Shown: positions 3,003-42,391 of the stretch, in pieces
Position numbering within the stretch: the stretch's first letter is position 1
Layout: each line of letters starts with the position of its first letter
Translations under genes and position numbers: made by a program
The notes under the pieces: generated by a model
Database searches by the model: none
Told to the model about the DNA's origin: nothing
Seen by the model: only the letters and a program-made list of their open reading frames with translations
Assembly (NCBI RefSeq): GCF_048403405.1
Contig: NZ_CP183129.1
DNA: 64,000 nt
Source of the DNA: Escherichia coli
GTDB lineage: Bacteria; Pseudomonadota; Gammaproteobacteria; Enterobacterales; Enterobacteriaceae
Direction: 5' to 3' (one strand)

Positions 3003-3323
3003 ATGGCATCTTTGTCAAGCATGGGTGAAAAATTTCGCCTGATTCGTGAAGCAGAAGGTATGACCCGCCAGGAGTTTGCGGATTGTGTTGGGCTGCCTTA
3101 TGGGACGGTAACTAACTATGAGGTGAGGGGGAAGCAAGTAACAGAGGGTGCCTTACTTAAGGTTACGAAACACCCTAAATTTAAGAAATATGCTTATTGG
3201 TTATCAACAGATGAAACGATGCCGGAGGTTGGGCAAATTTCTCCGGCTCTCTCTCTTGATGGTTCCTGCAATTCGGAGGGAGATCGTGTTTCAACCGAAA
3301 CAATCCAAAAATTATCCCGCTGA
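3003..3323 (+). CDS. P2 C-like immunity repressor (HTH), about 106 aa
   Basis: Track ORF 2949..3323 trimmed to the ATG at 3003 (GGAGGA Shine-Dalgarno upstream). HTH region and C-terminal tail resemble P2 C (GLPYGT.., KYAYWL.., GQISPAL). Confidence 0.8.
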   Translation: MASLSSMGEKFRLIREAEGMTRQEFADCVGLPYGTVTNYEVRGKQVTEGALLKVTKHPKFKKYAYWLSTDETMPEVGQISPALSLDGSCNSEGDRVSTETIQKLSR

Positions 3324-3419
3324 GGCCAGAAAACTGGTTAGACCTGCTTTTTGTCTGGTCTGATTATTGCTGGAAAGAGGCTGGAGAAATTGTAGAGCGG
3401 TTCATTGGAGGGCTTCGCA

Positions 3420-4424
3420 ATGTCGATTAAGAAGCTCGAAGATGGTCGTTATTTGCTGGACATCAGGCCGAACGGACGCAAGGGAAAGCGCGTGCGTAAG
3501 GTATTTGACAAAAAATCGGTAGCGGTGGCCACTGAACGCTACATCATGGCGAACGCTGAAAAGCGGGAATATATACAGGGCTACCGTGATCGTCGAACGC
3601 TAAATGATTTGCTTGAGTTGTGGTGGATGTATCACGGCCAGCACAGGCGTAAGGCAGAAGAAGACCGAAAACAACTGCGCAACATAATCAATGAGCTTGG
3701 CGCTGATATGCAGGCTGTGGATCTTGATAAGCTAAAAATTATCGCGTGGCGTTCTCAAAAGATAGCTGATGGATTGAAACCGTCATCTGCTAACAGATAC
3801 ATGAATCGGTTATCCGGAATGTTTACCGTACTGAAGAAAATAGGCCTCTGGGATGCAGAACATCCGGTAAGGGGAATTTCTATTCTTTATGTATCTCCAC
3901 GAGAAATGGCTTTCCTGTCCCAGAAGGAAGTGGCGTTATTGCTCGATACACTGGAGGGCGATTACTGGCGTGTTGCGCTTTTGTGTTTAAGCACGGGGGC
4001 GCGCTGGAGTGAAGCCTGTAAGCTTCGTGGTGAACAGATAGTTCATAACCGTGTAACGTTTCTTGAAACCAAAAATGGCCGAAAGAGAACAGTGCCAATT
4101 TCGCAGGCAGTTTGTGAGGCGATCAAAACCAGAGAAACAGGCGGCTTGTTTGAGGTGAAGTACCGGGAATTCTGCTTGGCGCTGAAAAGAGTTAAGCCCG
4201 ATTTGCCAAAAGGCCAGGCTGCACATGTGCTGCGGCATACGTTCGCCAGCCATTTTGTGATGAACGGAGGAAACATTATTGCGCTTCAGAAGATTCTTGG
4301 CCACGCAACCATTCAGCAAACAATGGCATATGCACATTTTGCACCGGATTACCTGCAGGATGCGGTGGCCCTTAATCCGCTGAAAGGTGGCGTGAGTGTC
4401 CACGCAGTGTCCACGGGGGATTAA
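3420..4424 (+). CDS. int: P2-family tyrosine integrase (334 aa)
   Basis: Strong similarity to P2 Int across its length (MSIKKLEDGRY.., LCLSTGARWSEA, IVHNRVTF, HVLRHTFASHF, YAHFAPDYLQDA). Start taken at the ATG at 3420, 7 nt after GGAGGG. Confidence 0.9.
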   Translation: MSIKKLEDGRYLLDIRPNGRKGKRVRKVFDKKSVAVATERYIMANAEKREYIQGYRDRRTLNDLLELWWMYHGQHRRKAEEDRKQLRNIINELGADMQAVDLDKLKIIAWRSQKIADGLKPSSANRYMNRLSGMFTVLKKIGLWDAEHPVRGISILYVSPREMAFLSQKEVALLLDTLEGDYWRVALLCLSTGARWSEACKLRGEQIVHNRVTFLETKNGRKRTVPISQAVCEAIKTRETGGLFEVKYREFCLALKRVKPDLPKGQAAHVLRHTFASHFVMNGGNIIALQKILGHATIQQTMAYAHFAPDYLQDAVALNPLKGGVSVHAVSTGD

Positions 4425-4451
4425 TTTTATATAGCCTGAAACGGCTTAAAG

Positions 4452-4486
4452 GGCGATACTGAATAACAATTTTTCAGTATTGCCCG
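4452..4486. repeat. imperfect 13-bp inverted repeat (GGGCGATACTGAA ... TTCAGTATTGCCC) in the int-pdxB junction
   Basis: Read from the sequence; one mismatch. Could be an int terminator or an att-associated site. Confidence 0.4.
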
Positions 4487-4582
4487 TCTAAATGGTTATG
4501 TTGTTATCTGTATGATTATGAATGTTTTTTCAGATTAAACAGCAGTTTGCAAATGGGCGTTTGTTAATAAAGGAGCCTTAGA

Positions 4583-5740
4583 TTGTCAGAGACTGAAAAA
4601 TGGTTAAAAATCCTTGTTGATGAAAATATGCCTTATGCCCGCGACTTATTTAGCCGTTTGGGTGAGGTGACCGCGGTTCCCGGGCGTCCAATTCCCGTGG
4701 CTCAACTGGCAGACGCGGATGCGATGATGGTGCGTTCGGTCACGAAAGTGAATGAATCTTTGCTGGCAGGAAAACCCATTAAATTTGTTGGCACTGCCAC
4801 CGCGGGGACCGACCATGTCGATGAAGCGTGGTTAAAGCAGGCGGGAATTGGTTTTTCCGCGGCACCTGGCTGTAATGCGATTGCGGTGGTGGAATATGTT
4901 TTCTCCTCACTGCTGATGCTTGCCGAACGCGATGGATTTTCACTGCACGAGCGTACCGTGGGGATCGTGGGCGTTGGTAACGTTGGTCGCCGTTTACAGG
5001 CGCGACTGGAAGCGTTAGGGATTACAACCTTGCTTTGCGATCCGCCCCGCGCCGACCGTGGGGATGAGGGGGATTTCCGCTCGCTGGATGAATTAGTTCA
5101 GCATGCGGATATTCTGACTTTCCATACGCCACTCTTTAAAGATGGTCCGTACAAAACGCTGCATCTGGCGGATGAAAAACTGATCCGCAGCCTGAAGCCG
5201 GGAGCGATTCTGATTAACGCCTGCCGTGGCGCAGTTGTCGATAATACCGCCCTGCTGACCTGCCTGAACGAAGGCCAGAAGTTAAGCGTAGTGCTGGATG
5301 TCTGGGAAGGCGAACCGGAACTTAACGTGGAATTGCTGAAAAAAGTGGATATCGGCACGCCGCATATCGCAGGCTATACCCTGGAAGGTAAAGCACGCGG
5401 TACTACGCAAGTGTTTGAAGCTTATAGCAAGTTTATTGGGCATGAACAGCACGTTGCGCTGGATACATTACTGCCCGCGCCAGAGTTTGGTCGCATTACG
5501 CTGCATGGCCCGCTCGATCAGCCAACGCTGAAAAGGCTGGTGCATTTGGTGTATGATGTGCGCCGCGATGACGCACCGCTGCGTAAAGTCGCCGGGATAC
5601 CGGGTGAGTTCGATAAACTGCGCAAAAACTATCTTGAGCGCCGTGAATGGTCATCTCTGTATGTGATTTGTGATGACGCCAGCGCGGCATCATTGCTGTG
5701 TAAACTGGGTTTTAACGCCGTTCATCATCCGGCACGTTAA
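4583..5740 (+). CDS. pdxB: erythronate-4-phosphate dehydrogenase
   Basis: Translation matches E. coli PdxB. The TTG at 4583 is 7 nt after an AGGAG Shine-Dalgarno; the exact start is uncertain. Confidence 0.93.
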
Positions 5741-11424: not shown

Positions 11425-11625
11425 GGTCTTGCCTGATGCGACGCTGGCGCGTCTTATCAGTCCTACGCAGGAGTAGAACCGTAGGTCGAATAAGGCGTTC
11501 ACGCCGCATCCGACAGCCGTTGCCTGATGCGACGCTGGCGCGTCTTATCAGGCCTGCGCAGGGGTAGAACCGTAGGTCGAATAAGGCGTTCACGCCGCAT
11601 CCGACACGCATTGCCCGATGCCGCA
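11425..11625. repeat. tandemly duplicated REP/BIME unit (~90 bp, two copies)
   Basis: GCCTGATGCGACGCTGGCGCGTCTTATCAG...CGTAGGTCGAATAAGGCGTTCACGCCGCATCCGACA occurs twice with a few substitutions. Confidence 0.85.
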
Positions 11626-42339: not shown

Positions 42340-42391
42340 CCGAATTTCGATTAACGCTCAGTCTCTGACTGAGAAAACTGGAAGCATGCTA

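Follow-up and report, generated by a model that had tools for sequence, protein, structure and literature searches.

A P2-like prophage ends in the first codons of Escherichia coli pdxB and brings a plausible substitute translation start

The integrase-side end of a P2-like prophage sits in the first codons of the vitamin-B6 gene pdxB in the DNA analysed here (64,000 nucleotides of Escherichia coli contig NZ_CP183129.1, one strand, hereafter called the window). The phage arm that now adjoins pdxB carries a Shine-Dalgarno sequence and a TTG codon from which full-length PdxB would be translated. We hold the explanation as a whole, namely a P2-like attP arm, a core within pdxB and a phage TTG giving full-length PdxB, to be very probable. 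The substitute TTG/Shine-Dalgarno arrangement is already known from phage ΦSM, and the window is a natural instance of the same arrangement; since the integration site, the TTG with its Shine-Dalgarno sequence and the prototrophy of the lysogen were published in 2019 for this 97%-identical phage, the finding as such is not new. Added here are the exact 20-bp block of identity, the frequency of the junction in E. coli, an inconsistency among RefSeq start calls, a critique of the published promoter and a read-through alternative. The positions in the window are as follows.

About 2602 to 2889, − strand: Cox-family gene, divergent from C (Pfam Phage_Cox, 1.3e-22).
3003 to 3323, + strand: phage immunity repressor C (HTH), which opens the lysogenic operon running toward pdxB (RefSeq annotation of SWHEFF_68).
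3420 to 4424, + strand: P2-type tyrosine integrase of 334 aa (Pfam PF24624 Int_N, 5.6e-23; PF00589 Phage_integrase, 1.1e-22).
4395 to 4415, + strand: two AGTGTCCACG repeats, 11 bp apart, inside the 3' end of int; candidate Int arm-type (P') sites.
4425 to 4606, no strand: integrase-proximal attP arm, non-coding, all phage DNA (attP matches, no host homology).
4451 to 4463 and 4473 to 4485, + strand: 13-bp inverted repeat or RNA hairpin with a 9-nt loop and no T-tract (repeat search and folding).
4511 to 4516, + strand: TATGAT, the best weak −10 candidate of a lenient hexamer scan, with a poor −35 and below 9/12 matches.
4570 to 4575, + strand: Shine-Dalgarno sequence AAGGAG, 7 nt upstream of the TTG.
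4583 to 5740, + strand: chimeric pdxB open reading frame, composed of the phage TTG, 7 further codons (SETEKWL) and native codons 2-378.
4607 to 4626, no strand: att core AAAATCCTTGTTGATGAAAA, the block common to attB, attL, attR and attP.
4628 to 4630, + strand: internal ATG (native Met9), the PGAP start in most lysogens, with no Shine-Dalgarno sequence.

The junction was dissected by a four-way comparison of attB (the empty site of E. coli B), attR (the window), attP (free phage Chuche) and attL, for which the flk-side junctions of two lysogens were used (SWHEFF_68, 99.6% identical to the window over 4200-4900, and CRE1540, identical over the 4380-4640 junction). The alignment and the raw sequences agreed on a 20-bp core corresponding to pdxB codons 2-8. 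To the left of the core, attB was the same as attL (…ACAAACGTG) and attP the same as attR (…GGTTA); to the right, attB matched attR (TATGCC…) and attP matched attL (AAATGA…). Switching of flanks at the core is as expected of site-specific recombination, and the identical block with flanks that swap partners places the core at 4607-4626. The initial annotation had rightly recognized a prophage/host junction here (the integrase ends at 4424 and the body of pdxB follows) and had located the att core in 4425-4582; the alignment it proposed, with the flk-pdxB region and the opposite prophage end, was run and found the duplicated 20-bp core further downstream, in the pdxB frame. The 17-bp core published for ΦSM, ATCCTTGTTGATGAAAA (PMC6456863), falls at 4610-4626, inside the 20-bp block. 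A megablast search with 4200-4900 matched 5,425 of 5,426 complete E. coli genomes, the prophage-free ones only from 4607 on, and 4425-4606 resembled no part of the prophage-free flk-pdxB intergenic region. Identity of 4425-4582 to the K-12 pdxB upstream region, named in the initial annotation as the sign of an att site elsewhere, was not seen, the stretch having no host homology.

At the flk-side junction, ~37 kb off, the native pdxB promoter region, its weak Shine-Dalgarno sequence and its GTG start are retained. The orphaned start now precedes a 14-codon stub (MKILVDEKNDDLIY, then a stop), which is followed by a hairpin with a 19-bp stem. Replacement of the native pdxB promoter, which had been raised as a possibility, has thus taken place, and the native ribosome-binding site and start codon were displaced with it. 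The following sequence of events would account for both ends. The phage recombined with the host through the 20-bp core in pdxB codons 2-8. Integration left the native promoter, ribosome-binding site and GTG at the flk side, where they would drive only the 14-codon stub, and connected the pdxB body to phage DNA in which AAGGAG is followed, after 7 nt, by an in-frame TTG. A protein begun at this TTG would be full-length PdxB in which the initiator methionine is replaced by an 8-residue phage leader, (M)SETEKWL, and a lysogen making full-length PdxB in this way is expected to stay a vitamin B6 prototroph.

The hairpin beyond the stub is a perfect 19-bp-stem inverted repeat, ACAGATAACACAAAGCCCG/CGGGCTTTGTGTTATCTGT (7966-8010 of L001 and ~6121-6165 of L132, outside the window). 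It adjoins the distal Int arm sites, at the place of the ogr/F-operon terminator of P2, and in the prophage it faces the orphaned native pdxB promoter and the stub reading frame. Between ogr and att, at the left end of the prophage (8037-9670 of L001, likewise outside the window), lie a gene annotated as 'type VI secretion system-associated protein TagO', a zinc-ribbon protein and a Hok/Gef toxin; in Chuche this cargo position is occupied by a DNA methyltransferase and a Com-like gene.

By its sequence the prophage is assigned to the P2-like phages (Peduoviridae, Xuanwuvirus/P88-type). A query of int plus arm (3405-4626) was 92.5-99.4% identical to the Escherichia phages Chuche, P88_4B11 and PhiR44_2 and to ΦSM, and for the arm the identity to attP was 97.8-98.9% in P88_4B11, ΦSM and Chuche. 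Two of these phages, P88_4B11 and ΦSM, are assigned to Xuanwuvirus, Peduoviridae. P88_4B11, PhiR44_2 and Chuche share the same integrase, with arms 97.8-98.4% identical in P88_4B11 and Chuche. The core of P88_4B11 has one difference, GAGGAAAA for GATGAAAA. In the free-phage attP of the Xuanwuvirus relatives the arm is joined to the other phage arm, whereas in the window it is joined to pdxB, and the TTG there opens a ~21-codon reading frame through the core.

The closest precedent is ΦSM (Citrobacter rodentium, Shae_phiSM, OR565851; int plus arm 96.9%, arm alone 98.9% identical). Its insertion at ATCCTTGTTGATGAAAA, at the 5' end of pdxB in E. coli K-12, was established by PCR and sequencing, and the same study remarked that the gene thereby loses its own start codon and control region, and drew attention to the TTG and AAGGAG of the phage (Magaziner et al., 2019, J Bacteriol 201:e00638-18; PMC6456863). 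The core, the phage TTG, the AAGGAG and the loss of the native start and promoter are the same in the window. The two cases differ in that the window holds the resident prophage of a wild E. coli and ΦSM was studied as a laboratory lysogen, in the extent of the identity block (20 bp here, 17 bp in the published ΦSM core) and in one leader residue, which is Trp (TGG) in the window and Gly (GGG) in ΦSM and most E. coli copies. Apart from the ΦSM paper, a literature search turned up no report of a phage with its att site in pdxB.

The layout is also that of P2, with the same gene order (cox, C, int, att), Int arm direct repeats of the TGTGGACA type on both arms, P' sites inside the 3' end of int and a terminator hairpin beside the distal arm; the annotation of P2 attP runs in parallel (distal Int arm, core, Cox region, int stop with P' sites). 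The reverse complement of AGTGTCCACG includes TGGACA, which fits the P2-type Int arm consensus tgTGGaCa (PMC3448106), and the distal arm bears GTGTCCACGCAGTGACCAC, which fits it too, making both candidate Int sites. P2 differs in its core and its target, and in the distance from the int stop to the core, which is 78 bp in P2 and 182 bp here; the additional sequence accommodates the 13-bp hairpin together with the substitute initiation region of pdxB. Upstream of int, the Cox-family gene and the C repressor (a weak Pfam HTH_3 match of 21.4 bits, under the 23-bit cutoff) form a divergent switch, with TGCCCGATRTGGCAT present as two direct repeats just upstream of the C gene. The Pe-Pc switch region (2915-2945) contains three direct repeats ~10 bp apart (AATGGCTCA / AATGGCTTA / ATCGGCTTA). 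Motifs like them, AAAYGGYTWA, recur in the attP arm at 4439-4449, 4490-4498 and 4598-4606 and may be Cox or C boxes of the present phage. The P2 cox-box, TTAAA(G/C)NC(A/C), differs from these motifs; no array of it was evident in the attP arm, and the P2 box may not be that of the present phage.

The frame that enters pdxB is open from TTG 4583, with no stop before codon 2, and the AAGGAG-7-TTG spacing is near-ideal. Between the stop at 4568-4570 and the core this TTG is the sole canonical start in the open frame. The chimeric PdxB is 385 aa long, with LSETEKWL running into KILVDEN…. Of 200,000 shuffled versions of the arm, 1.7% (strict) to 3.6% (loose) contained an in-frame start next to a Shine-Dalgarno-like motif. 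RNA structure around the translation-initiation region was not significant (z −0.9). TTG is a weak initiator, and this was counted against the TTG reading. The Shine-Dalgarno sequence, the TTG and the frame were intact in all copies inspected; the variants seen were substitutions at 4576, in the spacer, and at 4600-4601 (AAA TGG, AAA GGG, AAG GGG). The Trp codon of the window is a minority form, 4583-4626 being matched exactly in 11 of 302 genomes. The AGGAG picked out in the initial annotation stands, at 4571-4575, and so does its probable TTG start, which lies in frame with pdxB: AAGGAG and TTG appear to be the most plausible new translation start, and we infer that TTG 4583 would be the start in use.

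How pdxB is transcribed at this junction is less clear-cut. The initial annotation has the 158-bp stretch (4425-4582) carrying the pdxB promoter, and a promoter has also been predicted for ΦSM. That the stretch drives pdxB from a σ70 promoter of its own, independently of the phage, we regard as a credible possibility that nonetheless falls short of being the probable one. A σ70 consensus scan of the + strand of 4425-4575 gave no match of at least 9/12, leaving no good candidate upstream of the Shine-Dalgarno sequence, and the best arm candidates in the lenient hexamer scan reached 7-8/12 matches. The arm is AT-rich and does contain weak −10-like hexamers such as TATGAT; the sole 9/12 σ70-like match, at 4583-4611, sits downstream of the TTG. 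The promoter predicted for ΦSM with phiSITE consists of a −35 TTGCAA and a −10 TAAAGG (PMC6456863). These elements lie at 4547-4552 (4/6) and 4568-4573 (3/6), separated by a 15-nt spacer. The −10 is devoid of the invariant T at −7 and overlaps the Shine-Dalgarno sequence, so that the transcript would begin past its own ribosome-binding site. Judged on these hexamers, the published ΦSM promoter prediction is internally inconsistent. A further point in favour of an arm promoter is that the Chuche arm is better conserved than int (98.4% and 91.2% identical to the window, respectively), but binding sites for the recombination proteins Int and Cox explain this conservation equally well as pdxB signals do.

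On sequence grounds, read-through from the phage deserves at least as much weight as an arm promoter when the source of pdxB transcription is considered. The C-int operon points in the same direction as pdxB, Pc of P2 drives a lysogenic operon encoding repressor and integrase (PMC3936717), and a terminator scan from C to pdxB found no canonical terminator; together with the lack of a σ70 site in the arm, these observations make read-through at least as likely. The lysogenic C-int operon, being constitutively active, would be its source, and pdxB would be transcribed by C-int read-through past the hairpin at 4451-4485, from a weak arm promoter, or by the two together. Transcripts reading through from int might be terminated or attenuated at the hairpin, and the sequence downstream of the hairpin has no good σ70 promoter. 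We tentatively propose, as a possibility that we would not rate as likely, that pdxB in the lysogen (and possibly usg-truA-dedA too) is transcribed mainly by extension of Pc→C→int→pdxB, with the hairpin as a leaky attenuator or processing site.

The inverted repeat begins 27 bp past the int stop and ends 122 bp short of the core. The initial annotation had described it as a 13-bp imperfect repeat at 4452-4486; the repeat is real, and its coordinates are shifted by one, to 4451-4485. On the + strand the RNA fold has 13 pairs, one of them G·U (ΔG −21.0 kcal/mol, z −6.4; no equal among 200 shuffles), compared with −17.7 kcal/mol as − strand RNA. Only 4 of the 13 stem pairs are G-C. A terminator scan of 4200-4800 returned 0 sites: the T-run 3' of the stem is absent on the + strand (tail GTCTAAATGG), and the − strand tail TTTAAGCCGTTT is also below criterion. 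Without a T-tract the repeat is not a canonical (rho-independent) terminator. In relatives whose integrases are 80-82% identical and which use other att sites, a hairpin with a T-tract comes right after int, which makes the position of the present hairpin typical and its missing T-tract not.

That the repeat at 4451-4485 is instead a DNA site for Cox, IHF or Int in the attP arm, and not an RNA hairpin, we consider unlikely. The Cox-binding region of P2 does extend from the core to the int stop, and the Pe-Pc-like AAAYGGYTWA motifs occur in the arm (at 4439, 4490 and 4598). However, these switch-like motifs fall outside the repeat arms, and the known Cox and Int sites of the P2 family are not palindromic but repeat in direct orientation at a spacing of about one helical turn; a search of 4381-4640 for the IHF consensus WATCAANNNNTTR with at most 1 mismatch gave no match. 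The only natural variant, C4454T in ΦSM, changes a C-G pair to U·G on the + strand and keeps all 13 RNA pairs, whereas on the − strand, as in DNA, it adds a second mismatch (−18.4 for + and −14.1 for −). Being one observation, this does no more than hint that the repeat has an RNA role in the 3'-terminal part of the int message. The hairpin may be such an RNA element, acting as a partial terminator or stabiliser, rather than a DNA site. A λ sib-like retroregulator was considered and rejected: the hairpin lies between int and the core and stays linked to int in phage and prophage alike.

A search of 4350-4700 against Rfam identified no family, only chance-level miRNA-like matches (E>1). Elsewhere in the window, Rfam matches at gathering level were a C4 antisense RNA (RF01695, 78.5 bits; 39-126, − strand) and the isrK Hfq-binding RNA (RF01394, 63.1 bits; 162-236, − strand), side by side in the early region of the P2-like prophage. 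The host part contains Rfam matches to naRNA4 (RF02564, 75 bits; 11484-11554, + strand) and the nuoG RNA motif (RF01748, 50 bits; 42342-42384, + strand).

Annotation of the pdxB start in lysogens is inconsistent. RefSeq calls the phage TTG start in CRE1540. Among 60 sampled lysogens, PGAP placed the start at the TTG (385 aa; for example WP_025653439.1) in 20 and at the internal ATG (370 aa; for example WP_152931770.1) in 40, and RefSeq annotates the ATG also in SWHEFF_68, Q5 and CMZE087. Taken at face value, the latter calls would have pdxB translated from ATG 4628 into a protein without its first 8 residues, the TTG and its Shine-Dalgarno sequence being incidental. ATG is the stronger initiator of the two, and the promoter-like TTGTCA-17-AAAAAT at 4583-4611 (9/12) could yield a short-leader transcript. 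Against this, no Shine-Dalgarno sequence precedes ATG 4628, whereas the near-ideal AAGGAG-7-TTG upstream is unvarying in all copies seen. Starting at ATG 4628 would also drop KILVDEN, the conserved segment with which the Pfam catalytic-domain profile begins; this N-terminus is kept in the Salmonella and Vibrio PdxB structures and is closely similar in Pseudomonas (RILADENIP). We therefore regard use of the internal ATG as improbable, and its annotation as the functional pdxB start is probably wrong.

Inactivation of pdxB by integration, with the lysogen living on exogenous B6 or a bypass and the new start site a coincidence, can be set aside as very improbable: the native promoter, ribosome-binding site and start codon are all removed, and a start with a Shine-Dalgarno-like motif arises by chance at the frequency given above for shuffled arms, but MG1655(ΦSM) grows like wild type on M9 glucose, on which pdxB mutants are auxotrophs (PMC6456863), the pdxB reading frame is intact in all lysogens examined, and the junction is found in many lineages.

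The junction was carried by 302-303 of the 5,426 complete E. coli genomes (~5.6%), all at least 96.9% identical across it (the figure of 302 counts genomes covering at least 80% of a query that also spans the int side). With all copies near-identical, the fact that the Shine-Dalgarno sequence, the TTG and the hairpin are conserved says little about selection. A scan of IMG/VR for diverged integrase relatives that target pdxB found none among 80 loci, nearly all of which are trimmed at the int stop. Integrases at 80-82% identity differ at the C-terminus, and their loci have att arms of another kind (GGTTACA repeats) and a T-tract terminator following int. In a GTDB scan with one genome per species, no match exceeded 82%, and none of those loci had pdxB beside it by tblastn. 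As no diverged pdxB-targeting relatives were found, no argument from covariation or deep conservation can be made. In another E. coli, EC190759 (NZ_CP142953.1, 79391-82628, about locus 1725 of L088), the same int and arm are not joined to pdxB; there the arm adjoins a glycoside-pentoside-hexuronide transporter gene, truncated at its 5' end, which lies upstream of yicI and is annotated as a pseudogene without its N-terminus. It looks like a secondary attachment site without rescue of the target gene.

Other phages likewise rebuild a functional target gene, among them the 186-type phages in tRNA genes and ΦNP in ssrA; phage 21 and e14 integrate in icd and carry a replacement for the displaced end. 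With the phage arm rebuilding the target gene, integration is not deleterious. The phages in tRNA genes, ssrA and icd duplicate the 3' end of the gene homologously. At pdxB, in contrast, the 5' end is replaced by non-homologous sequence, which would provide the gene with a new leader peptide along with new signals for translation and transcription.

For genome annotation, the outcome is that two RefSeq pdxB starts coexist among the ~5.6% of complete E. coli genomes that carry the junction, and that the ATG call is probably wrong. For phage biology, the junction neatly illustrates a phage whose target is the 5' end of an essential-pathway gene and which swaps that gene's expression signals for non-homologous ones, where other phages duplicate a 3' end instead of replacing 5' expression signals. 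If pdxB transcription were indeed mainly an extension of the Pc transcript, a prophage immunity switch would govern an essential vitamin-B6 gene in ~5% of E. coli strains, and transcription of that gene would drop when Cox shuts off Pc on induction.
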